A stretch of DNA of 64,000 nt, from the NCBI GenBank assembly GCA_010015585.1, contig ML975151.1. One strand, 5' to 3'. Position 1 is the first letter of the stretch, and each line of letters begins with the position of its first letter. This DNA is from Eremomyces bilateralis CBS 781.70 (lineage: Eukaryota). A program made the position numbers and the translations under genes. The notes under the pieces were generated by a model. It made no database searches and was not told where the DNA came from. It saw only the letters and a program-made list of their open reading frames with translations. Shown piece by piece: positions 1 to 26,206 of this stretch.

Positions 1-1571
1 GGATCCAGTAAAGACATGCGTACTGGACTTCAGGAGGAAGACTTTGTTCAACTCGGCTTCTCTCGACATTGGCTACAAGCATGCCGGGGGCATCTACACA
101 ACAGATATCTTGCTTAAGTGATGTTGACATAAGCCGTATACAGCTGTCGGTTAATACTTGATAGGCTTGCTTCTCGTCTACCCAGAACTCTGGGTCTTTG
201 CACCTGGCCTTGTTGAGGAGATAGTCCCGAAACGAAGGGTGATGTAGACGGAGTGGGTAGATGTCACCCTTCGGGATGTCTAGAATCGCATGAAGATCCT
301 TCAGGATCCGATCAATCTTTTGCTTCGTGACATTGAGCAGCTTGCCAAGCGAGCTGGCAGAGAGTGGAGAGAAAAGAAGCGCAATACTTCCAAGAATCTG
401 TCGTAGAGTGCCATACAACTCTTCCTTCTCTTTTGCTGAGTAACCTAGACGAATAGTCTTCTTTAGGACAGTAGTGTAGAGCTCATTGAGGTGCTCTTCT
501 GGTGCGGTAGTAGACGTGCTACCTTCTAGCAGAGTTTGTACTCTTTCTTCTGCGAATAGGCCTTCTTGAATGAATCGACAAGCAGTTGCGGCCCATATGA
601 ATAATCCACCTGCAATCTGGATCAGGAGTTTGATAGTCTCTTCGCCTGGCCAGCAGGAACCTAGAGAGTGTTCCTGTCCAATGAGATTAAGATTGTGCTT
701 AAAGTAAACAGAGATATCGTGATCTACGATCGATGGAGATATATTGTGGAGTACAAAGTCCTGGTGTTTACCATCTGGTATTTGAACGAAGCCGTTTCGG
801 ATCGGAACTTCAGGCCGGCTCGTCAGGAAGACTCGTAATCGAACCGTCTCTAACGATCGAGCTTCGGCCAAGAGATGTAGGATGATCCGGATGTCATTAT
901 CATTGTCGCACTCATCGAGTGCATCGACGACAAGGACGTACGCGGATTGGTTACCATTTTCGTTCAGCTTCGACAGCGGGCGTAGGACGAGTTGCTGCCA
1001 CTGATCACGAAGAGACTGGCTCGCAATGTCGCGACGCTCTTTGAGAGCGTCGCATATATGTTGGCCAAGAGACGGTATGCTGATCGCTAGCTGCCACGCA
1101 ATGCTCGTGACGAACTTGCCTGCATGACCGACGTCTCTACCGCCGCGCTCGAAGAAGAAGCTGGCTCCAAGGCGCTTCTGCTTAAAATATATCCGAGCGA
1201 CAGTGCGCGTAATCGTCGACTTCCCTGTGCCGGCCAAGCCATTCAGCCAGAAGATGCAGCGCTCGTCTCGGCTACCAGCCCAGCTGTAGATCTCTTGAAG
1301 GAGGTCAACGCGGGTATCGGGAAGGCAGGTCACGTCATGTTGTCGCTGGTATGCGTTGAACGGCGCGTCCTCTGCGGTAGGGAGGGATTTAAGCACATCG
1401 TTCAAGTCTAGATTTCCAGTCAGCTTCTTGCTGCTTCGAGGCCATAGCCAGCTAAGCACACTCACTTTCGCTGCTCCCAAAGTTCACAGATCCATGGACA
1501 GTGCCAGCAACAACCTGCGAATTCTGGTTGGCGGACAAACCGCTAATAATGCGTTGAGTACTGCCTGACAT
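1..1571 (-). CDS. NLR-type NACHT (STAND NTPase) protein, HET-E/NWD-like; 3' end runs off the window
   Basis: Manual translation (absent from the ORF track because no stop occurs in the window). Exon 1 1571..1466 MSGSTQRIISGLSANQNSQVVAGTVHGSVNFGSSE; intron 1465..1408 (GTGAGT...GCTGAC...CTAG). Exon 2 has CLPDTRVDLLQEIYSW, Walker A IFWLNGLAGTGKSTIARTVA, LGASFFF, Walker B VLVVDALDEC, VFLTSRPE, AGGLFIWAATAC, LRLHHPSFRDYL, PEVQYACLYWI. Confidence 0.93.
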
Positions 1572-1944
1572 GAGCTGGAGTAGCGACGCTAAGTTTTGCT
1601 AGCTGCCGGCTGTTGCTCTCTTCTGGAGTGTATTGCCGTGTATGTGAACATGTGCATGCGAACACCTGGGAGTGAGTTTATATCTGTACCCAGATGAGGT
1701 TCATCCTCAACTAACGAATGCATTCGCAAGGCTCGCCAATCAATACTCCTGCCTTGCCGCTACTGCTGGGGAGCAGCTGTCGGCTACAAAGTAGGGCGGA
1801 CCTAATAACGCCAAGACCATTCGTCGACGTTTCGTCGACGTTTGAAGGTTTGAAAACGGAAAATAGCGCTATACCTGATAGGGTAGCGCTAAACTATAAA
1901 CAGAATTTCGGTAGCACACAGATTACGGAGTAGGCATGTGTCGG

Positions 1945-3397
1945 CGCCCAGCGGAGGACAAAAATAGCGGGACTCACATTGGGCTTGGCGCCACCACCCG
2001 TACAGATTTCTATATAAAAACAGATATATTCACAATAACGCAGTCAATCCACGTCAAAGTGGAAGGTGACGTTATTAAGTCTTATACAAACAGTCTATAT
2101 GTAAAAAAAGCGGCGGTTAGCCCCCCATTCCGCCCCCATAACCAATCAGTTGACCACCAGCCTCGATCACCTTTCGAAGTCGATCAGGCATAGAAAGTAC
2201 CCGTTTATTAATCCATTCCTGTTTAAGCTCTCCCCAGGCCTCGATCGCTAATTCACGAGTCTCTTCGGGATTGAAATGGCGATATTTCCGTACGTATTGC
2301 TTCGTCGGTTGCCAACAGTCCTCGATGATCGCAAGATCCGGCGATCCTGCGCAATTAAAGTACGAATGTACGCCATTTTGCTCTTTCCATTGTTGTACGG
2401 CATTGCCTTTTTTCCGTGACCGCGGCGGTGCATGGCCTGAGTCTTGATCCTCCTCTAAAACGAAGAAATCTCCACGGTCGACCCATTCCTGAACTTCCAT
2501 CTGGAGTATCTCCTTGGGATAAACGTCCTGGGTCATCTTCCCGTTTTTATTCGTCGGTATCTCGTAAAAGGTAAGGGGGGACTTGAAGTCGTAGCCCACC
2601 GCGGCCCATGCGTAGACTTTGAGCTTCTCTGCGTCGTCCCGTTCCTCCGCGCGTTGGATACACTTGGGACAGTACCGTTCGCCGCGTTTCCGGATAATAA
2701 CGAGCTTCCCTTGAGGCCCCATCCCGAAATGGACTTCGTCGCTAAATCTGATATATTTCCAGTGATCCGGAGTCGGATACTTATCGAGCCAAAGCTTCGC
2801 GCGGTTCAATCGCATCTCGGCCAGCTGTTTGTTGCAGTACGGCTTCCGACACGCGACGCATTTGAAGTATCCATGCTTTTCCATAGCCCGACGAATTGTT
2901 CGGCTAGAAACATCGAGTCCGGCCTCAAGCGCAAGTGTATCCCAATCAATAGCTCGTTCTTCGGCGCAGTCAGCGCTCTCGAGGATATCGGTCATCCGTT
3001 GGATATCTTCGTCGGTGATTTTAGGCGGTCGACCTCTTGTTTCGAGTCGATTAGGGATATTCCGTTCCCTCCGCTCAGTTTCCGCTTTGGCGTACTCATA
3101 TCCTCTGGTTTTGGATACGCCATAACGGCGGAAGATATCGGCGTGAGTGTAAGTCCGATTAAAACCATCGATACGTCTTATACCGTTAATATACTCAATA
3201 GCATCCTTAATTTTCGCTTTTGTAGGTGTTGTAATATGTTCTCGAGGCCTTTTTCTACGATCTTCAGCTAATAGAGCTGCTGCACGGGTTTGGGGAGCCA
3301 TATTAATTGATTATCTAAATGGAAGATGAATAGAGATTTTGGTGGTGGTCTGCCAAGGCCTGAAATGAGTCCCGCTATTTTTGTCCTCCGCTGGGCG
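1945..3397 (-). mobile_element. Full-length Tc1/mariner DNA transposon with perfect 32-bp inverted repeats
   Basis: CGCCCAGCGGAGGACAAAAATAGCGGGACTCA at 1945-1976 is the exact reverse complement of 3366-3397. The repeats enclose an intact transposase ORF. Confidence 0.93.
2117..3301 (-). CDS. Tc1-like DDE transposase (DD41E spacing)
   Basis: GRPPKIT, HTH region (VSSRTIRRAM), catalytic motifs RFSDEVHF / LEEDQDSGH / SPDLAIIEDCW, C-terminal SMPDRLRKVIEAGG. 41 residues lie between the second D and the E (hand count). Confidence 0.93.
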   Translation of the reverse strand: MAPQTRAAALLAEDRRKRPREHITTPTKAKIKDAIEYINGIRRIDGFNRTYTHADIFRRYGVSKTRGYEYAKAETERRERNIPNRLETRGRPPKITDEDIQRMTDILESADCAEERAIDWDTLALEAGLDVSSRTIRRAMEKHGYFKCVACRKPYCNKQLAEMRLNRAKLWLDKYPTPDHWKYIRFSDEVHFGMGPQGKLVIIRKRGERYCPKCIQRAEERDDAEKLKVYAWAAVGYDFKSPLTFYEIPTNKNGKMTQDVYPKEILQMEVQEWVDRGDFFVLEEDQDSGHAPPRSRKKGNAVQQWKEQNGVHSYFNCAGSPDLAIIEDCWQPTKQYVRKYRHFNPEETRELAIEAWGELKQEWINKRVLSMPDRLRKVIEAGGQLIGYGGGMGG

Positions 3398-3953
3398 GCG
3401 GTGGGCCACCCTTGCATCGCAACTTTTCCCAGTTCGTCCCATCTAGCGCCGGCCTCGGCATGATTCAACATCGCATGATTGGATTCCTCGCTCCAACGCA
3501 GCATCACCGTCTGCAGCTCACCACACGTGTCCCAAAACCGCGATAACCTAACGTCGCCTACATGGCCAGCGTGGCTAGATGGTCCGGAAACGCGCCGTCC
3601 CTTGCCGCGACTGCGAAAAGCGGCAGCAGGCTGGAGGTAGGATGTGGTAAGCTATGAGCTATGAGCTATGAGCATGGAGCTGACGAGATGTCCTCCGAGC
3701 CCTCGGGGCAGTTGGTTGCGTTTCTTTGTTGTGCGGCATTGGCGATTCACAGTCGAATTGAGGCGTTCACATATTCTGGACCGGTTCCTACTATAGTGAG
3801 CCTGAAGCCGTCTCGTGGTTGTCGTTGAAACATTGTCCTTCGTCAGGTCTCTTTATTTTTCCAGTCGTCATAGTCAATTTCCAGACGTCCCAGTGACCTC
3901 GAGGAGCTCTATCGTCCAAAATCCCCAGCGACGATACGGACTCAATCGTCAAA

Positions 3954-5679
3954 ATGGCACCCAACATCATGATCAGCAATAACATGCCCCTCGGCGTGGA
4001 CACTAACACCTCCATCCCCCAGTGCATGCTCCGCTACAACCCCGACGACGTCGCCTCCGACAAGCTCGTCCACCTCGACACCATCTCCGGCAAGTCCCTC
4101 ACCTACGGCGGCCTCCGCAAGCGCGCTGCCCACTGCGCCTGGGGCCTGCGCAACAAGCTCGGCCTGCAGGTCCAGCAGATCATGCTCGTCTTTGCGCCCA
4201 ATTGCACGGATTTCGTGCTCCTCGCGCACGCCATCTGGTGGAGCGGCGCGGTTCTGTCGCCGTTGAACACCGCGTCGACGGTGAAGGATATCGAGCATGT
4301 TTTGAACCTGGTAGGGCCAACGCATATTGCGGTGGCGCCGCCGTTTGTAGAGAAGGTGATAGAGGCGATTCGGGGATCGAAGCTAGCGGGGTCGAGGGCG
4401 CCGACGCTGTGCACCTTATTGGAACGACATGGAGATCTGCCTCTGTTTCCAGAAGATGTCGAAGGCACTTCGAGTGCGGAGAGTCTACCGCCGTGGGATC
4501 TGGACGGCATGTCCTCCAAGGAGGCGGTCAGCAGTGTGTGTTTTTCTTCCGGTACGACCGGACTGATCAAAGGAGTGAAATTATCACACTACAGCCAGAT
4601 CATGAACATGATCCAACTGCGCGTCTCCATGCCCACGCGAATCCACTCCGGCATGCGCGAAGTCTTCTTCCCTCCTTGTAAGTTCCCTCATCTCCCATCC
4701 TTCCACGAGCTCCACCAACGTCTCCGCAGTCGGCCACATCTACGGCGTCGCCATCATCATGCTCACCGGCATGTGGGTCGGTGCGTTCTTCTGCACCATG
4801 CCATCCTTCGACCTCCCCACCTACTGCGCCCTCATGCAACGCCACCGCGCCACCGACATGCACATCGTCCCACCCGTCGCCCTCCTCCTCACCACCTCCC
4901 CGATCGCACAGTCCCACGACCTCTCCTCCGTCCGCAACATCATGGTCACCGCCGCCCCGCTCAAACCGGCCCTGCAGACGAAACTCCTCACCCGCTTCCC
5001 TGACGCCGATATCTACCAGGGCTACGGCATGACGGAGACCTGCCCGGCGCTGACCTCGCAGCATCATCTCACGGCGACGAATATCGGCAGCGTGGGGAAG
5101 CTGGTCACAATGACGGAGGCACGGCTGGTGGATCCGAGCACGGGAGTGGACGTGCGGGATGGCGAGGAGGGGGAGATGTGGGTGAAAGGTCCGCAGGTGA
5201 TGATGGGGTACATCAACGACGCGGCAGCGACGCGGGCGGCATTCTCAGACGACGGGTGGCTGCGCACGGGAGATATCCTGCGGCGGGACGGGAACGGGGA
5301 TTACTGGGTGACGGACCGGTTGAAGGAGATGGTGAAGTACAAGGGGTTTCAGGTGGCACCGTCGGAGTTGGAGGATCTGCTGCTGGGGCATCCGGACGTA
5401 GTGGACGCGGCGGTGTGCGGGGTGTATGTGGAGGCGGAGGCGACGGAGGTTCCGGTGGCATATGTGAGTTTGGTGGAGGGAAAGGCGGGGGTGGTGGGAG
5501 AGGAGAGGAGGAGGGTGTTGGAGGGGATACGGGGGTGGTTGGATGGGAGGGTAGGGGGATATAAGAGGTTGAGAGGGGGGGTGCATCATTTGCAGGAGTT
5601 GCCAAAGACGCCGAGTGGGAAGATCTTGAGGAGGGAGTTGCCGGCGAAGGTGAAGGCGGCGAGGATGGCGAAGCTGTAG
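3954..5679 (+). CDS. 4-coumarate-CoA ligase-like acyl-CoA synthetase, peroxisomal (PTS1 AKL)
   Basis: AMP-binding motifs FSSGTTGLIKGV, YQGYGMTET, WLRTGD, KYKGFQVAPSELE, LPKTPSGKILRR. Intron 4678..4729 (GTAAGT...CAG) joins the two ORF-track halves (FFPPF-GHIYG). C-terminus ARMAKL. Confidence 0.93.
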
Positions 5680-6600
5680 GGGTGGGATGAGATACGAACT
5701 TATGGATGGATGAGCCGTTATGAGTATGCTGCTCTCGTAGTCGGAGTGGGATCAGGGTTTCCACTTTATTCCGACAATAACGATAGACCAATGATAGATC
5801 AATGAACATTATGAGTTACAATAGGGGTAGTGTACCCTTCACCTCCGCTGTATCATCAAGGGCATGAAGACACATGCATGAATTAAATCCTCTACCTAAC
5901 TAGCAACTAGACTAGGAACCGCCTTTTGCCCCGTTCCAGACCTCGTGAATTCGTGTCAATAGCTTTCCATTCACCCTCGGACCACAGACACGGTGATCCT
6001 CTAAATCAAGAACCAGCCACCTCACATTGCTACCCACACGATTTCTTAGCAGGCATGTAAGATATGTAAATGTAGCAACTCTTGATTCATTCGCACCACA
6101 CTCTTCCCCAGGGATATGGAAGGGATATGGAAGGAATAACTACACGAACTGGTATAAAAGATCGATAAAGAACATTATGGTAAGGGTCGGCCCATGGTGC
6201 GGTATATGGTAGGTAAAGGTAAGGTCAGGGACCGTGTAGATGTCTCCGTATCCAGTCCGTGATATCGTCCCCAGAGTCTCAGATATCGGCTCCCCTTCCA
6301 TAAAAGCATGGCATGACGACGCCTAGGTGGGGTGATGCGATGCATACATGCATGCGTGTGCGATCACCATTGAGTTTCCCGCCTTCTGCACGCCACATCG
6401 ATATCGACAGAAATGTCAACAGCGAATCGGCGACACCTTCCTCTTTTCAGCACGCGTTGCAAACGAGCCGAAATCAACCCCTGGGGATCAACCACCCCCA
6501 TCCCATCCATTCCATTCAACTCCCTTCCCACCGTTTCCCCTTTTTCTCCCTCTCCCTTCCACTTTCCATCACAACATCCCCCCTTTTCTCCCAAGCACAC

Positions 6601-6795
6601 TTAAACCACCTCCTTCGCAACTCTCTTCGCCTGGATCTTCCGGTAGGCGAACAGGCTGATCAGGAAGATGGCGACGGTGCCGACGATGGCGAACACGACG
6701 ATGACGCCGGGCTCCTTGGCGGCCCAGTTCTTGCGCTTCGTGAGCGTCGAGAAGGCGAGTTCGGGAGCGCTTTGTAGGGATGAGATGGCGGCCAT
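6601..6795 (-). CDS. 64-aa single-pass membrane microprotein, uncharacterised
   Basis: ATG in good context (ATCGCCATGG). MAAISSLQSAPELAFSTLTKRKNWAAKEPGVIVVFAIVGTVAIFLISLFAYRKIQAKRVAKEVV has one hydrophobic helix followed by a basic tail and strong C-ending codon bias. Confidence 0.75.
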   Translation of the reverse strand: MAAISSLQSAPELAFSTLTKRKNWAAKEPGVIVVFAIVGTVAIFLISLFAYRKIQAKRVAKEVV

Positions 6796-7231
6796 GGCGA
6801 TTGTGGGTAATGTTTTGTTCGGCGTGGGTTGAGGAGCTGCAGGCGCGGGGATGTTAGTTGGTGGTGGTGGAGGGGGGTTGGGCGTGGTGGGACGGGTTTG
6901 CAATTAATATTAGGGGACTGGATGAGAAGACGGAAAACAGAGAGATTGAGAAGGTAAACAGTCTCGATCTGTGCAGAAGAAAAACTTGAGAGGTGGAAAT
7001 GATATCGGCAAGGTGCGGGAACTAGGAAGCGGTGATTAAGCAGGATCAACGTGCCGGTTGAATATGTTCTGCCAATTGCCTCCAATTGGGGTTCAGTGAC
7101 GGAGACGAGTTCGACGTGCAATTCAACAATTGATCGCAAGTATTGCAATACAGTCTTCTCGTCGCGTGGAGTGGAAAGACGAAGCAGCAGCACGTTGGAG
7201 CGGTTTTGGTGGAGGGACAATTGCGGCTTAA

Positions 7232-7512
7232 GGTGAACAGAAACCCAGCAGCAGCAGAGCTCAAATCCAGGACAGCTCCCAAAACAATAAAAAGCTCAAT
7301 TGCCCGATCAACGCAACGCCCAAAAAGTCCTTTTTTGTTTCTCCTCGGATTGGCATTCAAGGATCACTCGGCTTTTTAAGACGAATTCCTGGCAATTGGC
7401 AATGCGGTCTTCGCTCGGATAGCTCGGGAGCAGGCAAACTTTTTTTCGTCGAGGATTTTGGAGACTGCCCCGGAAAATCGCGCAAAATGCTGCTGCTGGG
7501 ATTTGGTGCACC
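7232..7512 (-). repeat. Long imperfect inverted repeat / RNA hairpin, probably in a 5'-UTR intron
   Basis: 13-bp perfect stem 7244-7256 / 7488-7500, followed inward by helices 7266-7275 / 7465-7474 and others that pair via G-U on the minus-strand RNA. Confidence 0.7.
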
Positions 7513-8764
7513 AAAAGTCCATAAACGACACTCGTCACTCACTCCAACGTTTCTGGTCTGCTTCGTTTCGCCTCACGTCATGCACGCATTGATTGCAGAA
7601 GCCAACGGCGGTGCAATGGGGGTGGTGGCGGGCAAAAGGAACGGAACTGAACGACGTGCATGCACATGGAGGGACCACCAACGCTCTCACTCACTCACCT
7701 GTTGCTAAGCTTCGGTAGCTGAATCGATCAATTCTCGCAGCTGCGCAGGGTGTCGGATGACCTTGGATCGCGGCGCGCAACGTAGGCGAATCGGGCGAGG
7801 GGTACGGGGCTCGAAAGCGTTCGAATTGATAGAAGATTTGGGAATTGATGAAGCAGAGAGATCAGAGAAGGAGAAGGTTCGAAATGGAAGTAGAAAAGAG
7901 GCTGGTGTTGGCGTCGAGGAGTGACGGAATCGGGTGGGAGCCGCGAGGGCGCTGAGGCGCTGATGGAGTGGGACAGCTGATTGGTTGGTGGAGGGGCAAC
8001 GAAGGGGAACAGGTAAGGAGCTGGTGGTCGTTGGTGGGCACTGAAGGGTGGTGGGTGGGGGGAGAAAGAAGAAATTGCTGTCTGAAGGTCTGATTGCGCT
8101 GATCAACGGCCTGGGCGTTAAGAGTTGAGAAATGGGAGCTTGGTCGGAATTACATACTTGATGATAAATGGTGATTGTTCTTGGTCTTGCTTGGCTTCTC
8201 CGCTCCCAGGACAGAGAGGTGATGGAGTGCTAATCTATCTATCCGATTGACTCTACGTAGGATTCTATCAAAGAACAATCCCTCTACAACCTACACTCTA
8301 GAAAAACTATGTCAAAGGGGTCGAAGGGACTCTCATCTCAAGCGGAAACCGGCACTGAATTGCCTGTGGAAACTCGGGAGCTCCAGCGTAGCAGTGTCAT
8401 TTTGGCACCCAGTATTCCTAGCGCCGGTTGTAACCCGGGCTCGTCGATGACTTAGCGTACCATCGCAATCCGCAATCCAAGATTTCAGCTGGGCATCGCT
8501 CGGCGAACGAAGCTTATCACGGCGATGTGACAGGGGCTTCGTTGTCATGCTCCAGTTTTCTTCGACCCTTCATTAAACCGACGATGATAATGTGCAGAAA
8601 CAGGAACAGAAACTGATCATCTAACAATTCCACATACGTAGTACACGAGAACGGGGAGCTTTTGAGTGGATTGATTTTACCTGGACACACATGTACTATG
8701 TACGATAGATGACGCTCCTCTCAGAAGTATCTCGTTCCTGCTGATTTTATTTCAAAACATGTAT

Positions 8765-9699
8765 CTACAATTTCGACGGCACCCACTTCGGCTGCTTCTT
8801 CTGCGCAAACGCCGCCAACCCAATCCGAATATTATCCCCCTTCATCAACTTCGCTCCATACTGCTCCGACGTCACCCGCGCCGCCCCCTCCACGCTCGCC
8901 GTCTCCCACGCCTCCCGCAACCCCGCCCGCGTTACGATCACCGCATCCGGACTCAGCGCTGCGATCTTCTGCGCCAGCTCCACCGCCTCGGAAACGACTG
9001 TCGCCTGCGACTGCGCGATCCGATTAATCAGATTGAACCGCAGCGCTTCCTCGGCTGTCAGTTGGCGTCCGGTCATCGCGATCTCCGACGCGAGCGGGAT
9101 CCCGACGTTGCGCACGATGCGTGGGAGGCCGCCGGCGGCGGCATAGAGGCCGCGTAGGGCTTCGGGGAGGCCGAATTTGGCGGTGGGCGCGGCGACGACC
9201 ATGTCGCTGTGACGCAGATAGGTCAGTAATGCAAGGAATATGATATAATATGATTACAGGACACATGTGGGAAGGAGAAGGCTCCTTACCAATTCAACAC
9301 GATCTCAAACCCGCCGCCCAACGCCCACCCATTCACCGCCGCCAACACCGGCTTCTTTCCCACCCGCCGACTCACGCCCGCGAACCCGCTCGCGGGATGC
9401 GTGGCGAGCGCCCGGTCCGACGAGGACGCCTTCCCGCCCTTGATGTGGCCCTGCTCGATGAGGTCCTGGCCGGCACAGAAGGAGCGGGTGCCGGCGCCGG
9501 TGATGATGGCGACGCGGAGGTCGGGCTCGTCGTCGAACCAGCGGAACACGTCGTCGGCTTCCCAGTGGGCGAAGGAGGGGATGGAGTTCATGGCTTTTTC
9601 GCGGGTGATGGTGACGAGGAGGATGTGGGGAGCGGGGTAGGAGAGGGCGAAGGAGGAGGAGGGGATGGCGGGTGGGGGGGTGGAGGGTGTCCAGGTCAT
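8765..9699 (-). CDS. Enoyl-CoA hydratase/isomerase (crotonase), peroxisomal (PTS1 SKL)
   Basis: FCAGQDL, KPVLAAVNGWALGGGFEIVLNCD, FGLPEALRGL. Intron 9289..9207 (GTAAGG...CTGAC...CAG). Ends WVPSKL. Confidence 0.93.
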
Positions 9700-10315
9700 T
9701 TTGGCGGTAGTGGTGGTTGGATGCTGGTGTCGTTTCGTGCTGGATTCGCAATTCTTTTGATATTGAGATGCCGTATCGACCGTGGAGGTAAGTATCGGTA
9801 GGTCTTGTAGTTGGTAGTATCGCTCTGTTTCGTCCGATGTTATGAAGTATTCAATCCCAACGAGTAGATCAGTTAGGCACGCTCTGAAGACACCAAACCG
9901 AAGACAAGAAAGAAACAGAGGCTGAAAGACAACCCGTCATCAATATGAAGTCGTTCCCCCAGGTGAGATGGAGTTCTCTCCGCATTACACTACTTGAATG
10001 GGGGACCTCGGCTTCAAGCGACCATTGCCCTACCGAAGTCAGGGGTCGGCGGGATGTTTTGGTCATGATCGCCGTCGATTATGGGTAAACATTACCCACG
10101 TTTGTTGAAATATCTTCATGTTTACTGGTGCAGTCAACATTCTGTATTCTGAAACTATGTTACGGGCAACCGCAATAGGAGGGAGTACAGCATGGTGGTA
10201 CCATTGTCTCAATGTTTGTCAATAACAAGACTAGACTAAGTCTGACTTGTGAGCTAGAGATATATCAAGGCATTAACTATTCATGCCTTGTTGCCTTATA
10301 TTGGAGGCCAACATG

Positions 10316-11720
10316 AAGGGTGGGGCGCTTAGTCATGGCGCAGAGTCCCAGACTCCCAGTCAATATCACTTCAGCCTCACTTATGTCTTTCTATCACGAA
10401 TTATACAACAATGCCTACCTCAGAGAAGCCCAAACGATTTGAATACGATACTATACGTAAAACGCGATTCTTTGATGCCTATGACACGCTTCCGAAAAGC
10501 TCTTCTTTTAACAGTCTTTGTAAAAGAGAGGGAATAGAGATTCATCCATCAACAGGTCGAAATTGGCTTAAACAGCGCGAACAGTATGGTCGAGCCGCAT
10601 ATCGAAAGACTCGTAAGCTTAGTACACATCTCGGACAGCCCTCTCGAATAAGCGATTCAGATATCCATCGCTTATTAGACCCTTCCAGTCCTCTCCATTA
10701 CCAACCGTACGATGAACAAGGCCTCGAATTCAATGTTAAAGGGAAAACAGTACAACGAAACGTAAAGAAACGGTCAGGAGCCCAACAATTTCAAAAGCCC
10801 TATATCAAAGCTATCTCCCCGGCAAATAAAAGAAGACGGGTCTCGTTTGGTCAACAAAATGAGGGCAAAACATTGACAAGATTTTGGCGATACGTCTACT
10901 TCACGGACGAAGCCCATTTCAATCCTCGAGATTTCTCAGATCGACCTGAATATGAGCTTCGAGTCCCTAATGCGAGTCAACGTCTTCAAAGTCTTCAGGA
11001 AACCAGATCACTCCCACTCAATGTTACCGTTCACGTCGCGAGCGGAGTTTCATACGACCACAAAGGTCCACTTGTTTTCTACAACGATCCAGCTTGTCCG
11101 ACTGTCCCGAAAGCCTACAGGCCGCGCGCCCCTCGCCGATCTGGCATTGAATCAGAAGAGCAATATGCTGAGAACGTCCGAATCTTTCGAGAAACAGCTG
11201 ATCGACCCGAGGTCGAATTAAAGCCCAAAGGAAACTCTATGAGCCAGAGATTCTATCTAAAAGAAGTTCTTCCGCATCATATTAAACACATTAAATGGCT
11301 CGAGGCTAAATATAATCGGAAATTCCTCTTTATTGAGGATAACGACCCATCTCATGGAACTCACTCTAAGAACAATCCTGTTATACAACGAAAGAGAGAT
11401 GAAGATCTCCTCTTACTTGATTACCCCGCTCAATCATCTGATCTTAGTCCGCAAGAGCCAGTTTGGAGAGCGATGAAACAGGTGCTTCGAGGTGGATCGT
11501 GGCATTCGGTGGAGGAATTTAAGCAAGCTATTCGGGCAGCCCATCGCTCGGTATCACAGCGATCAATTAGTGGATATATTAGTGAGATGCCTCAGCGTTG
11601 TAAAAAGCTCATCGAGCTAAAAGGAGGCCGAATTCGCTCCGATAAGTGGTAGAAAATGAATAAATTTGATGAATCTGAGCCTTTGCCAAGCCCTTGCACC
11701 ATGAGTAAGCGCCCCCCCTT
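10316..11720 (+). mobile_element. Tc1/mariner DNA transposon with ~27-bp imperfect inverted repeats
   Basis: AAGGGTGGGGCGCTTAGTCATGGCGCA (10316-10342) versus the reverse complement of 11695-11720, AAGGGGGGGCGCTTACTCATGGTGCA. The repeats enclose an intact transposase. Confidence 0.8.
10411..11652 (+). CDS. Tc1-like DDE transposase (DD38E spacing)
   Basis: YFTDEAHF / FIEDNDPSH / SSDLSPQEPVW, C-terminal EMPQRCKKLIELKGG. 38 residues between the second D and the E (hand count). Confidence 0.92.
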   Translation: MPTSEKPKRFEYDTIRKTRFFDAYDTLPKSSSFNSLCKREGIEIHPSTGRNWLKQREQYGRAAYRKTRKLSTHLGQPSRISDSDIHRLLDPSSPLHYQPYDEQGLEFNVKGKTVQRNVKKRSGAQQFQKPYIKAISPANKRRRVSFGQQNEGKTLTRFWRYVYFTDEAHFNPRDFSDRPEYELRVPNASQRLQSLQETRSLPLNVTVHVASGVSYDHKGPLVFYNDPACPTVPKAYRPRAPRRSGIESEEQYAENVRIFRETADRPEVELKPKGNSMSQRFYLKEVLPHHIKHIKWLEAKYNRKFLFIEDNDPSHGTHSKNNPVIQRKRDEDLLLLDYPAQSSDLSPQEPVWRAMKQVLRGGSWHSVEEFKQAIRAAHRSVSQRSISGYISEMPQRCKKLIELKGGRIRSDKW

Positions 11721-17346: not shown

Positions 17347-18169
17347 TATTCACTATTCACATGGTATTTCCAGGGTCTTTACTCCTTTACGGGCCCTGGT
17401 CTGTTGCGTGTTTGCCCTTTTATTAGCCAAATCATAAGGTCAAAGATGAAAGATCTGTGCGCCGAATTTGCTAGTAAGAAGGCACAGACACGGCAGACTA
17501 GGGCTGGTGAAGGAATGAATAATGCAAATGAAAAGTACATGACAGGATTCTTGAAAAGATTGATTAATATTCAACGGCTCAATGTATTATTCCGATCCCG
17601 TACCAACAATGGCTCAGAACATAAGAAACAGTTGGCTGCCTGCAGGGTTTGATGTTACATCTAAATATGGTAAGCAAAACTTGGGGATCACGATGGAGAG
17701 CAGCCGGACAACGGGAGAACGATACTCTGGGGCTATCCGTTGCAACTTCAATGGCTTACCAATTGCTTCGTCTGTAATAATGGATTGCCACTTTGGTAGA
17801 GACGCTGTCCTTCCCCGCTGGTCGGTTGCACAGATCGACGCTCAAAGCTCTGCTTATTATCAGCCCAATCGCACTTGTGTTTCTGGACGGAGATATCAGA
17901 CTACCGCTTCAGGGTTAGGGTCTTCAAATCAGGGTTTCAATTGGTCGATGGCATCGTTAAATCCCTAAATGGTATATATGGCGCCACATCCTAAAAACCT
18001 AACCCCGACGCTAGCTACTACATACGTACGTATCAGTTCGTCAAGTATTTTAGTTGCTAACAACTCCTTATGACGACGCTTCCTGTTGACATGTCCTAGG
18101 AGGCTTGGTCGGACCAGCACGGAATGGACAACTCCCTTTAAAAAGGGGCATAGAATATTATTAAAGAGC

Positions 18170-20426
18170 ATGGATTCTAACGCTGTTGAGGGGAGGAAGC
18201 AGACCGATCTTGGTCTGACACCACAACCGAACATGACCGGCATCGCTGATTTCACAAACATATTTCGGGCTTATCCCAACCCAAACACAGCACGCAAAGT
18301 CATTAAACGGCCGCGCCAGGCGTTTTCCTGCACAGCATGCCGAACCCGCAAGCTCAAGTGTGACCGAGAACGCCCATGTGGGATCTGCATCGCAAGAGGA
18401 GATGACGAAAAGTGTAGATATGCGTCGACGCCGAAGCAGCAGAAGGAGTCGAGGCTGGGCGTCCAGGGGCAGTTGCAGAGATTGGAAGAAATGGTGTCAA
18501 AACTGGTCCAAGATGGTAGTGCTGTTGCGAACTCGAATACAGCAATTACTCCGGATGATTCCACTTCCAGTTCCAATATGTCTACCAACGGCACGCAGCT
18601 GACGCTGGACTCTGAAGGGAGAGGCAGTGCGGAACCCGGCCCTAGATCAGTGTATACGGGGGCGACACATTGGACCACAGTCCTCGACGGTATCCGCGAT
18701 ATCCAAGACTGGCTTGACTTCGAACCCGAACCCATCCCATCGGCCCCGAACCCCCCGTCTAGTGGCGGGTTGTATGGCTTCATCTTCGGCGATCTGGAGC
18801 CGCTGAAGGTTGAAGAAGCCATCGAAGCGATACCTCCTCGTTCAGTCACCGATCCACTTCTGCAATTGTACTTCAGTTCGAAGTTCGCTTCGCCTACGTT
18901 TCTCCATGAGGGGAAGTTTCATCGTGACTACGAGCGCTTTCGAACTGACCCGGCTAGAACAAGCCTCTTCTGGATCAGTCTGCTCTATTCCGCACTCAGC
19001 ATCGCGGCGCTTGCGGCTCACGGCAGCAGACATTATCTAACCAAGCAATCCTACAATATTGACCCTGCGGCCCTCCGGAAGAAAGCCGGCCAGTGTCTGG
19101 TGACTGCCGAATATCACGAAGCGCAGCAGTATACTATCGAGTCGTTGGTACTATATTGTTTGGCGGGATTTTACGCCACCAGCGAGGCTGATTCGTCGCT
19201 TTGGTCGTTGTTCGGATTGGTGACCAGACAAGCCCAGAGGATGGGCTATCATCGTGACCCAAGTCACCTAAAGAGCAATGATATCACACCTTTCGAAGCC
19301 GAGATGCGGCGACGCGTATGGTTCTATCTTGAGACGTTCGACGTCCTATTCTCTTTTCACCTCGGGTTGCCTCCAATCATCCACGAAGGTGTCTGTGACA
19401 CTACACCACCGAGCCACCTCCTGGACGAAGATTTTGATGAACACAGTGAAGTACTCCCAGAGCCTCGATCGGACGTAGAACCGACGCACATGCTCTACCA
19501 GTACTATAAGTCGGCGTATATGCGAGCCTTCCGCAAAGTTGTCCGACACGCCCTCGCCGCCGGCAAACCGTCCTTCGAAGAGACCATCCTGCTCACGAAC
19601 GAAATGGAGGACTTTCATAACGGGCTCGCTGAAAGCTTGAAGATCCGGCCCCTTCAAGTCACACACTTCACCGACCCACCCTCTACGATCATGCATCGAC
19701 TGATGCTCGAAATGTGCTACCTGAAGAGCATGTGCGTGCTGCACCGTACCTACCTTAATTTCGAAAAACGCAATCCCAAATATGACCGATCCCGGGAAAT
19801 CTGCCGTGCGGCTGCCATTCGGATCCTCGAGCTACAGTCCGAGTACCACCGCGAGAGCCAACCGGGGGGTCGACTGCACGAATCCAGCTGGATGATGTCG
19901 AGCCTGAACCATGACGACTTCCTGCTTGGCGCCATGATCGTCTGCCTGGATCTGCGAGAGAACGAGTCGATGAGCGTAACGGACCGAGCTCGGAAGATTG
20001 AGGCGCTGGAGATTTCGCACGATATCTGGTCGGAGCGGAAGGATCGCTCGATGGATGTGCAGCACGCGCTGAAGGTCCTGGGATTGATTTTGAAAAGTGT
20101 GAAGGGGCACGAGAATTGGCATCTGGGGATGCAAGACTCAGAGGTCGCAGTGATGGCATCCAGTGCTTTACTGGCTGGGAGTAGCATGCAATTTGAATCG
20201 CTGCTTATGCCGGGGACGGTGCAATGTGATATGGAGGACCTGTCCCTGGCCTTGATAGATTCTGAGGGATTCGATGAATTGTTGAATGACTCGGCGAACA
20301 TTGATTGGGTGAGTTGACGTACTGAATAGCTTTGATTGCTACGGTAGACACTGACTTGCGTAGAATGCTATCGACGGATTCATTTTCGATCGTAATGGCA
20401 ACCTTGATCACTCCGTGTACTCCTAG
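18170..20426 (+). CDS. Zn(II)2Cys6 fungal-specific transcription factor
   Basis: SCTACRTRKLKCDRERPCGICIARGDDEKC, plus a fungal TF middle domain (AQRMGYHRDP, EAEMRRRVW). Terminal intron 20309..20363. Start is ATG 18170 or 18233. Confidence 0.92.
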
Positions 20427-22444: not shown

Positions 22445-23998
22445 CTAAGACCCAGCAACCCCTGAAAACACAAGCCGATTGCGTTCCGCATACTCCTCGA
22501 ACGCTTTAGCGTCTCCCACTAGGTCAGCAACGGCAATATATGTATCAGGACGTATCAAGTATGCTGCGTCGCGAACCAACCCCGTTCGTTGGTATTGATC
22601 CTGGTGCCATTCATACTCGTGCAACTGGACATTCGTGCTGCCGCACCATTCTCTGAGTATCCCCTTCGCCAGCCCATATACATGGACCTGCCACCCGATT
22701 CGATCATCAAAGCTTGCGAAATTGTCAGATCCATTTGCATCTGCAACCCACGGCAAACGGTCTCCTCCATGGACATCGCCCGTTGCGCCTTCCGACAGCA
22801 GAGTGCTCCGGTAATTGATCCCGATCTGCGAGACGGCGCGGAAGAAGAATTCACGGGCCCGTCCGATCGATAACACGAGCGGGACTATCAATGGCGCGAC
22901 CCGCCTCCTGACAATCCCCGCCACGACGCTCTCCGCCGTCAGTGTGGTGAAGACGCGATCGGTCGTTTGCACGAGCTTGAGCGCAAATGCACGTCGCTCC
23001 GTCTCGTACGATGGAAGTAGGTCTGCCGTCGCTTTGCCGTGGATCACGCTCGCTAGTTTCCACGAAAGGTTGATGGCGTCCCCGATGCCGGTGTTCATGC
23101 CTTGGCCGCCCGCAGGGCTATGGATATGAGCGGCGTCTCCAACCAGGAATGCGCGGCCCTGGGCGAAATGCTCCGCAACGCGGTGATGTACGCGATATGT
23201 CGAGAACCAGTTGACCTTGTCGATATGCATGTTTAGCTGGTCGATGGCACGGCTCCCGACGGAGTCGAGAGTGAGAGCCTCCGGGCGGTCAACTCGCTCA
23301 TCATGCACCATGCCGATAAGGCGGCAGTGGCCAGGTTTGTCGTAGGGGAATACGCCAATGATGTCGGCCTCGTCTAGATTCATGTGTGTTTCGTTGTTCA
23401 TGCAAGGACCGCTGCCTTCAATGTCTGCGACGTAGAAGAGATGGTGGTAGGCGTCGCCGACGAACTCCATATTTAAGGCATTGCGGACGGCGGAACGAGC
23501 ACCGTCGCATCCCGCGATATAGGAGGTGGTACATGTCTCTTTTCCACCGTCGGGCATGCGGAGCTCCGCAGTAACATGAGTGCCATGATCGGTCAAGTTC
23601 AGTAGCTCGGTGTTGCGCTCGACATTGATACCACACCGCTCAGCTTCTTCATTGAGTATACGCTCGTGGATGTCCTGTGGCAGAACGAATAGGAATGGAT
23701 AAGGAGTGAGACCCTTTCCAACTTCAGCCAGAGGGACTCGCCCCTTGATTGCTCCTGCGACCCAGATGTTCGATGCTTTAGCCGGTTGTCCTTGGGCAAG
23801 ACACTTTTCCGTCAACCCCGCGAGGCGGTAGAGCTCGAGAGTTCGTGCATGTACAACTGTGGCTCGTGAGGTCTCGGCTGACATGGACATCTTGTCGATT
23901 ATACGAACTCTGACGCCTTGTTTGACGAGAAACAAGGCGAGGATAAGGCCAGTCGGCCCGGCGCCTACGATGAGGACATCCATGGGATTTGCAACCAT
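22445..23998 (-). CDS. FAD-dependent monooxygenase (group A aromatic hydroxylase, PheA/TfdB-like), intronless
   Basis: DVLIVGAGPTGL, IAGCDGARSAVR, FLVGDAAHIHSPAGGQGMNTGIGDAINL, C-terminal YLIRPDTYIA. Confidence 0.93.
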   Translation of the reverse strand: MVANPMDVLIVGAGPTGLILALFLVKQGVRVRIIDKMSMSAETSRATVVHARTLELYRLAGLTEKCLAQGQPAKASNIWVAGAIKGRVPLAEVGKGLTPYPFLFVLPQDIHERILNEEAERCGINVERNTELLNLTDHGTHVTAELRMPDGGKETCTTSYIAGCDGARSAVRNALNMEFVGDAYHHLFYVADIEGSGPCMNNETHMNLDEADIIGVFPYDKPGHCRLIGMVHDERVDRPEALTLDSVGSRAIDQLNMHIDKVNWFSTYRVHHRVAEHFAQGRAFLVGDAAHIHSPAGGQGMNTGIGDAINLSWKLASVIHGKATADLLPSYETERRAFALKLVQTTDRVFTTLTAESVVAGIVRRRVAPLIVPLVLSIGRAREFFFRAVSQIGINYRSTLLSEGATGDVHGGDRLPWVADANGSDNFASFDDRIGWQVHVYGLAKGILREWCGSTNVQLHEYEWHQDQYQRTGLVRDAAYLIRPDTYIAVADLVGDAKAFEEYAERNRLVFSGVAGS

Positions 23999-26206
23999 AG
24001 TAATTCAGAATCCAGAATCTTCAATATATAAATATGTTAAAACTAAGAAAAAAAGGGTGCTCTCTCGTGAAAAGGAAAGCTGCGGATCATAGCATAGGAC
24101 TTGGTTGTGCTGAACAACACAAAAAAAAGAAGACCAATCTACAAGACATATACCTCCTAGTCACTCTTTATCATAAGCCTCACCTTACTATAAGCGTGTC
24201 TCGAGAATGTCACTCACTAACATCACGGCAAATGCGATTCCTGTCGGCCATTAGGATGAGTGATGACTGATCAGACCGATCTCCTCAACACGCAAGGCTG
24301 CTGCCTTCCGGCACAAGGAGATCGCAAAAGTTGACCGAGAGCCGTGTAGTGTATATGAGAGCGGAATAGAGTTCCATGATCGCCCGAGCAATACCTTAAA
24401 ATATGTCTAAAATGATATCTCGAGCAAAGTGCAAGATGACGCGTCCCGCCCATCGCTCGGATTTATGTGCCCGGCCGCAGGGAGCGGCGGAATAGTCTTC
24501 CCCCGTAGGGAGTAGAATTCGACGGTTGCCGAAAAGACCCTGCGCCTTGGCAAGCGGCAGGGGTTGCCGTGTGGTGGTTGATTCAGGAATGACAGGCCTC
24601 AAATCAGGCATCGAACTTCACATCAATTCTAAAGATGACGATGACTGGAAAAAAAATAGCGATGCAGAAGGAGAAGAGCGCGGAAATAGAAAACGAAAGG
24701 TCAAGGACGCAGTGTGCATGTGCCAGCACCGGGTGAATCTTGTTCCCTGCCACCATTTTTGCCTCCTGTTGCCGCTCGTTCACCAAGATGGCATGACAGT
24801 ATCCTCGAATCTCCGGTGCCTGTCCACTCAGGAAGTCGGGATGACTCCTCGCCGCCTATACGAGGATGCAGCCTACCCCTGTGAACAAAACCTGATATCA
24901 GAGGATAAATCAAGACAGCGCTCCAGGCATGCACTCGAAACGCAAGTAACCCTTATGTCGTCGAGGGCCGCCGGTGAGGAACCGAGGAAGGCAACGGTTG
25001 CCGAGACATGTGTCAGGAATAACTGGCCAGCAACAGGATATCCTGTTGTTCAAGAAGGCCCTTGGGAATAGAGTTGCTGCCTGCGGCGTTAACAGGACGA
25101 TTTGATAAGAGTGTCCACGTGGACAGGGCGATGTTCTGGACTATCACTGATCGCCTCAATCAACGTCTTCACACAGGTCGCCCTGTTCCCCACCATCATG
25201 CGAAGCGATGAGCTAACATCTCTTATGGTTTGAAATCGCCATTGCGTACAGCCGCAAACGGATAAATGGAAGCCTGTCATTGCGGTGTATCCGATGAAAC
25301 CATCGTGCGAAAGAAATGGAAATGGAACACCTTGTCAATTGTTGGAGATAGTGACATCGCCCATTGGTTAGCTGTCGTGTCGATGACTCGAAAGTCGACG
25401 TTGACGCGCCCAAGCGGCCCCTAGCTGGCGCGAAATTGACGCGATATCACATGAGGCGGGGTCGCCTCCACTGAGGCGTGCAAGAGCCGGTTTGGGGCTC
25501 GGATGGATGAGGCTGTGCGGGTCGAATGAGTAACTTTGAGTGAGTCATTGGTATGGGAGGAAGGAGGGCATCGAGATGGGATTGGAAGTTGGAAGAGGGA
25601 GAAATGGTATTGATACCTAGGAGAAGGATTTCGTGGAAGGAGTCGGGCAGTCAGGGGCTTTTGGAATCAGGCAGCAATATTTCCAAAAATAGTTAAGGAC
25701 TAGATTTTTATGGCGGAGTAGTATGGATGACTGCTACAGGTGGAATTACGCACACCTGATACAGAATGTCAAATCATGCCCGTTTTGGGAGTCGAGTTGA
25801 GCCCGTTGAAGAGTCCTCGAAGCCAGTCGCTTTGGAGAGAAGTCCAGAGAACTTTTAGCAACCGTTTCGAATTCTATGATACGTACACTTCTACGTTGAG
25901 TCGGATGATGGAATACAGTTCAGTATTGAGTAAAGTGTGCGAGAAAACAATTTGAAACCTCGTTGATGAGCGTAAAAGTTCCCGTTCGAAAGCACCCGTG
26001 TCCGCCGTGAAAGAAGAAATCGCACCGTAATAGAGACCCCCTCGTCTCAGTTCCATTCGACTCCAGTCCATGCCATGATACACCGGTATCAAAGGAAACC
26101 CACCCCGCGGGCGTGTTGAGTCCCGCAATGAATGAAAGAAAGCCAGTCCCGTAATGAAATAATCCCACCGCTGACGCGAAAACTTTCATCATACCCATTC
26201 TTCCCA

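Follow-up and report, generated by a model that had tools for sequence, protein, structure and literature searches.

What serves as the N-terminal module of a fungal NOD-like receptor (NLR) whose predicted product begins with a short peptide in place of an effector domain? The question is raised by a gene at the left edge, on the minus strand, of a 64,000-nt stretch of contig ML975151.1 of Eremomyces bilateralis CBS 781.70 (the whole stretch that was analysed, hereafter the window). The first exon of this gene encodes a peptide of 35 residues, MSGSTQRIISGLSANQNSQVVAGTVHGSVNFGSSE. On the evidence set out below, we consider it likely that exon 1 represents a single HET-s-related amyloid motif (HRAM) unit of the NLR-side r0 type, HRAM2-like (the Q3 type, with Q at position 3) and of the class NLR13, and that it works by the mechanism known from NWD2 and HET-S. 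The features on which this reading depends are as follows.

1466..1571, minus strand: exon 1, from the ATG at 1571, with 35 codons and the first base of codon 36; the whole N-terminal module.
1497..1559, minus strand: the 21-residue HRAM unit, residues T5–V25 (TQRIISGLSANQNSQVVAGTV), from pattern scan and alignment.
1408..1465, minus strand: intron of 58 nt, phase 1, directly behind the motif and without counterpart in the NCBI protein model P0003.
1465–1460 (donor GTGAGT), 1423–1419 (branch site CTGAC) and 1410–1408 (acceptor TAG), minus strand: intron signals, read from the sequence.
2..1407, minus strand: exon 2, partial (it runs off the window start), with a linker and then an NPHP3_N/NACHT NTPase, from Pfam and the frame open to position 2.
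1214..1240, minus strand: Walker A motif (P-loop) GLAGTGKST, read from the sequence.

By definition, an HRAM is a unit of 21 residues in which position 19 is glycine and positions 5, 8, 10, 16 and 18 are hydrophobic, threonine being allowed at position 10; the polar residue at position 3 sets the subfamily (N in HRAM1, Q in HRAM2 and H in HRAM3), and R or K is preferred at position 15, as a preference only (PMC4518210). The core of the window unit agrees with this definition, with I9 at position 5, L12 at position 8, A14 at position 10, V20 at position 16 and A22 at position 18. Position 19 is occupied by G23, a glycine that all 11 aligned sequences share. A pattern scan was positive for the window copy (from residue 5), for P0004, P0008 and P0013 (residue 4), and also for P0029; P0036 and P0037, with their alternative N-termini, scored negative. 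Among 100,000 shuffles of the exon-1 peptide that kept its composition, 329 show the hydrophobic/glycine pattern. All 10 aligned homologues carry Q at position 3, which is the HRAM2 mark (PMC4518210). The r0 copies on the NLR side are described as having few charges and being enriched in S and H (PMC4518210), and the window unit, low in charge and rich in S and H, is in line with this description. It is present as a single copy at the extreme N-terminus, at protein residues 5–25 and ahead of the linker and NACHT, and so fits the typical N-terminal position of HRAMs at residues 5–9 given in Wojciechowski 2022 (PMC9815663).

The class assignment is provided by a homologue. Pyrenophora protein P0009, or PZD22953.1, is 68% identical to the window product over residues 1–35 and is entered, for residues 4–26, under asm_id NLR13 in supplementary file 2 of Wojciechowski 2022 (PMC9815663), where NLR13 is an HRAM class associated with HeLo and HeLo-like effectors. 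As in the window gene, an unannotated short N-terminus precedes NACHT in PZD22953.1, with WD repeats behind it; membership of the window protein in NLR13 runs through this homologue rather than through a score of its own against the class hidden Markov model (HMM). Published r0 motifs from Dothideomycete NLRs that lie beside HeLo-related effectors are also close to the window unit. The r0 motif RQQDISGVSAQNHSQVFAGHA, from the NLR by Coclu2_33136, is identical, counted by eye, to the window unit at 11 of 21 positions and to the paralogue P0004 at 12 of 21. Further r0 motifs in the supplement of PMC4518210 are RNQHISGVSTQNGSQAFVGSA, beside Cocca1_9269, and GHQSISGISTTNGAQTVTGIV, beside Aulhe2_362588. 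Shared with the r0 motifs of Daskalov, Dyrka and Saupe 2015 (PMC4518210) are the single 21-residue unit at the NLR N-terminus, the core x-x-Q-x-I-S-G-V-S-A-x-N-x-S-Q-V-x-A-G, and an uncharged composition rich in S, N, Q and H. The window copy differs from them in its extra R (R for Q at position 3) and in the T at position 20, and the window gene differs from the r0 NLRs in that no HeLo-type gene adjoins it over the 62 kb that can be seen to one side.

The preliminary description of this DNA had proposed an HRAM-like motif as the sole N-terminal module of a NACHT receptor, and the pattern, the NLR13 entry of PZD22953.1 and the 11–12 of 21 identities to r0 agree with it on this point. Its further suggestion, that T in place of the usual N might mark a variant family, is not upheld: position 20 is H, S, Y, T or I in Q3-type r0 motifs (PMC4518210 supplement), and the homologue stands in a published class. 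Judged by its sequence, the motif is not a new family; it is a further member of a described HET-s-related class. In the parts of the PMC9815663 supplement that were searched, neither the motif strings nor any E. bilateralis or Alternaria accession turned up, a negative that is not conclusive, and its supplementary file 7 holds no Alternaria, Pyrenophora, Bipolaris, Curvularia or Dothideomycetes.

Candidates from other motif types were rejected. A regular-expression scan for the PP motif (G-h-Q-h-G / N-x-G-x-Q-x-G) found no pattern at the locus, the PUASM motif (FxGxGxQxxGxGxF) is absent from the peptide by inspection, and the Pfam family NACHT_sigma gave no match that would point to a sigma motif.

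Does the peptide recur in other proteins, and where in them? A first word-based search, with the 48-residue stop-to-stop frame around exon 1 as query, returned P0003. With the first 60 residues as query, seven candidates out of 47 passed, namely five paralogues from E. bilateralis and one protein each from Alternaria tenuissima and Pyrenophora tritici-repentis. A profile of the first 40 residues was passed by 12 of 2,888 candidates (5 from E. bilateralis, 2 from A. tenuissima, 2 from A. alternata, 1 from Pyrenophora and 2 from JGI metagenomes), and all 12 are NLRs, or fragments of NLRs, with the motif in N-terminal position. This recurrence, taken with the rarity of the pattern among the shuffled peptides, means that the motif is more than chance. 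Compared with the Pleosporales homologues, residues 1–35 are 68–71% identical whereas residues 76 to the end are 48–50% identical, which indicates that the motif is better kept than the NTPase body. Conservation of the motif in homologues, on which the preliminary description had made its proposal depend, is thus borne out.

The same picture was obtained with a larger search. When 1.84 billion representatives were searched with a 34-position profile (hmmsearch), 19 matches were obtained at E≤0.001, of which 13 are short first-exon fragments or NLR N-termini. The other six are long proteins with 4–20 matched stretches each; we take them to be beta-helix-like look-alikes rather than relatives, judging from the repeats LVTGTVIGDVNLG of P0024, the one among them that was read. 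A metagenome scan with the motif profile yielded 43 pattern matches and one confirmed locus, L001, which carries at 256–612 a motif-bearing NLR fragment whose frame ends shortly past the P-loop. At the intron position this locus has a 27-nt in-frame remnant, GTGAGC..CTGAC..CAG. No second copy of the motif is present on the L001 contig; a 656-residue Peptidase_C14 (caspase domain) protein without the motif lies 5 kb off, at 5652–7622, with a DUF6594 fragment between. In P0019 (103 aa), about 45 in-frame residues ahead of the motif resemble the start of a HET domain by eye (..YAILSHTWG..), with no Pfam match, and this stretch probably arose where a gene caller read through DNA upstream.

Several observations weigh against the assignment; those on the peptide itself are given here, and those on the search for a partner and on the length of the gene product are given below with the explanations they concern. 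An extra residue, R7, is found in the window copy only, by comparison with the 10 homologues, and it shifts Q to position 2, leaving R at position 3. Position 15 is Q19 in the window copy, outside the R/K preference; among the 10 aligned homologues this position is Q in eight, R in P0006 and L in P0007, and the published r0 examples (PMC4518210 supplement) likewise have Q there. Pfam HET-s_218-289 (PF11558) and NACHT_sigma are both without a match to the gene product; the Pfam model recognises only some 25% of HRAMs (PMC4518210). A comparison of the motif profile with the Protein Data Bank (PDB) gave five chance-level matches, the best of them at E 0.26 (Mtr2) and the next cystatin B, and HET-s was not reached. 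To our knowledge, there is no demonstration of amyloid formation by this HRAM subtype.

As a side result of the PDB search, QVVAG (1506–1520, minus strand, residues Q19–G23) was seen to equal the papain-binding loop of cystatins, cystatin B appearing at E 1.4; we take this as chance. A prediction of a four-copy complex of the peptide scored 0.02 against a mark of 0.32, which weighs neither way, and the best score in an ESM Atlas look-up was 0.85, below the useful range.

Might the peptide instead be some other sort of conserved N-terminal signal (a degron, for instance, or a peptide for targeting or autoinhibition) whose likeness to amyloid motifs is one of composition only? The lack of a Pfam or PDB match is consistent with this explanation, and so are the matches of the profile to beta-helix-like repeat proteins (six of 19) and the chance match of QVVAGT to the cystatin B loop. 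However, the position-specific HRAM pattern, the published class of the homologue and the 11–12 of 21 identities to r0 motifs exceed a compositional likeness, and we regard a signal of another kind as highly improbable.

The assignment of the motif to an NLR depends on the structure of the gene. The translation of 1467–1571 (minus strand) starts identically to the N-terminus of P0003 (KAF1815699.1 / XP_033537330.1), an E. bilateralis CBS 781.70 protein of 503 aa that is 100% identical to the window product. Base 1466 closes exon 1 and exon 2 opens at 1407, so that the split codon (A from exon 1, AC from exon 2) reads N and the frame is kept; the junction protein, ..GSSE-N-LNDVLKSLP.., corresponds exactly to the N-terminus of P0003. 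The CTGAC branch site lies 12 nt ahead of the TAG acceptor. Behind the junction, the exon-2 frame is open for 468 codons up to the window edge, and its product matches Pfam NPHP3_N (7.7e-31) and NACHT (7e-07). For the exon-1 peptide, Pfam returned nothing at E≤10, and a Pfam scan of the window gene product found no HeLo, HET, PNP_UDP or other effector domain. These results bear out what had been described from the letters alone, namely a 35-codon first exon with the peptide quoted there, a splice from 1465 to 1408, and a NACHT gene free of HeLo, HET, PNP or other effector domains. The claim that the exon is spliced directly onto the NACHT domain has to be amended, in that a conserved linker of about 40 residues (LNDVLKSLPTAEDAPFNAY..) lies between the exon-1 peptide and the NACHT fold.

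The preliminary description had also asked that the splice be confirmed in RNA. Run X1, the sole public run that contains the stretch, is stored as contigs whose RNA nature is only guessed, and these were placed on positions 1–2100. Record 3 shows 0 differences and ends exactly at 1407, with 14 unplaced letters, and contigs with 0 differences cover 1498–1614 (record 6) and 1585–1734. Two paralogue-like contigs align from 1466 onwards, and the 18 letters that precede this point in them match window 1390–1407 at 17 of 18, which indicates that exon 2 abuts exon 1 in the X1 contigs. The support for the splice from X1, drawn from contig ends and loose letters among the records listed, is good but not complete: the contigs stop at or join the exon edges, and the nature of X1 as RNA is a guess.

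The position of the intron is conserved among homologues, as judged from their sequences: the homologous metagenomic open reading frame (ORF) fragments P0015, P0016, P0017, P0019, P0020 and P0021 read E-S-E-C/Y or similar through the same donor. Two other gene structures were considered and rejected. A longer upstream exon encoding a globular domain is unlikely because about 370 bp separate the ATG from the end of a transposon and because every homologue starts with MSG or MSS. A start inside the retained intron, of the kind seen in P0033, does not apply to the window, where that frame is closed by a TGA and has no ATG before the P-loop. P0033 itself, the automatic model of a close relative, starts in the intron-retaining frame, and the motif exon is thereby left out.

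The exon boundary also coincides with a boundary of similarity. In P0013, 24 of the first 40 alignment columns are identical to the window, and the NACHT domain is 25% identical (56 of 220 columns after column 60). The A. alternata proteins P0012 and P0037 are identical at 140 of 140 positions over alignment columns 61–200, and at 93.8% after column 60 as a whole; they match at 5 of the first 40 columns, and the break falls at the exon boundary. Likewise, P0008 and P0036 of A. tenuissima share 96.3% identity in the body and 10 of the first 40 columns; their contigs are each recorded at 7,423 bases. These comparisons support the view that the motif sits on a swappable first exon and behaves as a module. 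The preliminary description had called the motif exon-shuffled, and this idea is supported by the near-identical Alternaria bodies with unrelated first ~40 residues and the presence of the motif on a NACHT domain that is 25% identical. The N-terminus of P0036 resembles a diverged unit of the window motif (..HVQGTSATNGGQTFAGLN..), and that of P0037 is a different, N/G-rich peptide (..TINQHVSNLNADNGSTINVNVG..). That the cassette rewires near-identical NLRs to other amyloid pathways, and that the family may also lack a HeLo-type partner and signal to an effector class so far unconnected with HRAMs or between paralogues, we consider unlikely.

How would such a module act? In the mechanism we infer, binding of a ligand would cause the NLR to oligomerise, bringing the N-terminal peptides together. 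The clustered peptides would then fold into a beta-solenoid-like amyloid nucleus, and this nucleus would template the matching r1/r2 double motif at the C-terminus of a separate, membrane-targeting cell-death protein of the HeLo type. The gene structure, the conservation and modularity of the motif, and its class membership by pattern and by homology to published cases can be read from the sequences; that the peptide forms amyloid and templates a partner, and that E. bilateralis has a partner of this type, belongs to the proposed scheme.

Known systems offer a measure for the scheme. In Podospora anserina, NWD2 is a NACHT-WD40 receptor whose only N-terminal module is one HET-s-type unit, and templating of HET-S has been proposed for it, as it is here for the window gene. 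NWD2 differs in that its unit is an HRAM1 (N at position 3, with a G-N arch) and its gene adjoins het-S; moreover, its motif and NACHT are encoded on one first exon (PMC4344463), whereas an intron stands between them in the window gene. The window peptide gives no sequence-level match to HET-s(218-289) by Pfam or PDB profile. With HET-eN / sesA / sesB of Nectria haematococca the window gene has in common a 5' intron of the NLR gene that sets the N-terminal amyloid motif apart, and that once hid it in HET-eN (PMC3321046), but the sigma motif of HET-eN is of a different family, and Pfam NACHT_sigma has no match in the window gene.

A partner of the proposed kind was sought in the 64-kb window, which covers one flank of the gene, and in database-wide searches, not in the E. 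bilateralis genome. When all six frames of the window (1,959 ORFs) were searched with the motif HMM, exon 1 was the only hit (76.4 bits; the next score was 7.3). Of the 92 window ORFs of ≥130 aa, a Pfam scan covered 33, the longest at each site as judged by eye, and none of these 33 showed a HeLo, HET, SesA, SesB, PNP_UDP or patatin domain. Neither the 19 library-wide matches nor the 12 matches of the profile search include an effector-like protein with the motif at its C-terminus, and PZD22953.1 is in no motif-pair table in the available portion of PMC9815663. Published data give these negatives a context. An adjacent NLR was found for 98 of 155 effectors (PMC4518210), which means that adjacency of NLR and effector is common but not obligatory. 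In Table 1 of PMC9815663, 131 NLRs carry NLR13, and for no more than 41 of them does the same assembly also hold an effector-side motif, so that NLRs with an orphan motif are common.

The same data allow another explanation, in which the motif acts without a separate effector, as a homotypic stacking element or scaffold that would stabilise NLR oligomers or link paralogous NLRs, or in which the partner is of a kind not associated with HRAMs. That no search returned an effector-side instance fits this explanation, as do the six motif-bearing paralogues in one genome and the co-occurrence of an effector-side motif for 41 of 131 carriers of NLR13 (PMC9815663). On the other hand, the closest published r0 motifs adjoin HeLo-related effectors with matching r1/r2 motifs; the searches, moreover, did not cover the E. 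bilateralis proteome as such, and diverged effector motifs would fall below the threshold of the 34-position profile. An action without a HeLo-type partner thus appears quite improbable to us, and we retain templating of a separate effector as the preferred reading.

The last point that weighs against this reading concerns the receptor rather than its motif. P0003, with 503 aa, has no WD40 repeats and may therefore not be a working receptor; its paralogue P0034 has 1392 aa and 17 WD40 stretches. The motif could be a genuine HRAM on a decaying or truncated paralogue, perhaps still expressed, in which it is a relic; this would be compatible with the HRAM class assignment. P0003 ends in ..PPEVHTSGDSR where the paralogues go on with ..PPEVQYACLYWIQHLQ.. 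into WD40 repeats, and five of the six E. bilateralis paralogues seen are short (451–669 aa), P0034 alone being of full length. The extra R7 in this copy alone and a Tc1/mariner element about 370 bp upstream of the ATG would also suit a relic. However, the exon-2 frame remains open for its 468 codons to the window edge, so that a truncation is not visible in the window. The X1 contigs show 0 differences over 68–994, 1103–1407 and 1498–1734, which, if X1 is RNA, would mean that the copy is transcribed, and the short models may be artefacts of annotation or assembly caused by repetitive WD40 arrays. On balance, we consider a relic copy a real, though less likely, possibility.

The surroundings of the gene contain mobile elements as well as ordinary genes. 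The Tc1/mariner-type element occupies 1942–3400, with 57-nt inverted ends (1942–1998 and 3344–3400) that are 81% complementary and an uninterrupted frame of 397 codons at 2120–3310 (minus strand; Pfam HTH_Tnp_Tc3_2, 1.4e-08). Another frame resembling a transposase, 439 codons long, lies at 10333–11649 (plus strand), with a weak DDE_3 match (7.9e-05, below the Pfam cut-off), so that two mobile-element relics are found within 12 kb of the NLR. Upstream of the ATG, at 1572–1960, X1 contigs with several differences map to the window; this suggests that the paralogues share a 5' flank, as after a segmental duplication that included the promoter or untranslated region. Neighbouring genes at 3897–5676, 9289–9936, 18074–20314 and 22448–24004 encode an AMP-binding enzyme (its frame broken in two, probably by an intron), an enoyl-CoA hydratase, a Zn2Cys6 transcription factor and a FAD monooxygenase, and these four may form a small metabolic gene cluster. 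The remaining genes of the window are of the housekeeping kind: exportin-T, a cyclic-nucleotide phosphodiesterase, a TsaD-like protein, an aprataxin-like HIT protein, a DHX29-like helicase and a protein disulphide isomerase.

The analysis brings to light, in a Dothideomycete that has been little studied, a family of HRAM-bearing NLRs that had gone un-annotated and has six paralogues or more. The locus is a clean example of how such a motif is packaged, its 35-codon first exon being followed at once by a conserved intron. It also matters for annotation, in that the P0033 model skips the exon and the motif is lost. The most useful by-product is the exchange of first-exon cassettes between near-identical NLR bodies: in related Alternaria genes the first exon is swapped for another N-terminal peptide while the receptor body remains 94–100% identical. 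The finding opens no new kind of biology; rather, it provides a lead on how fungal NLRs may be rewired to effectors.

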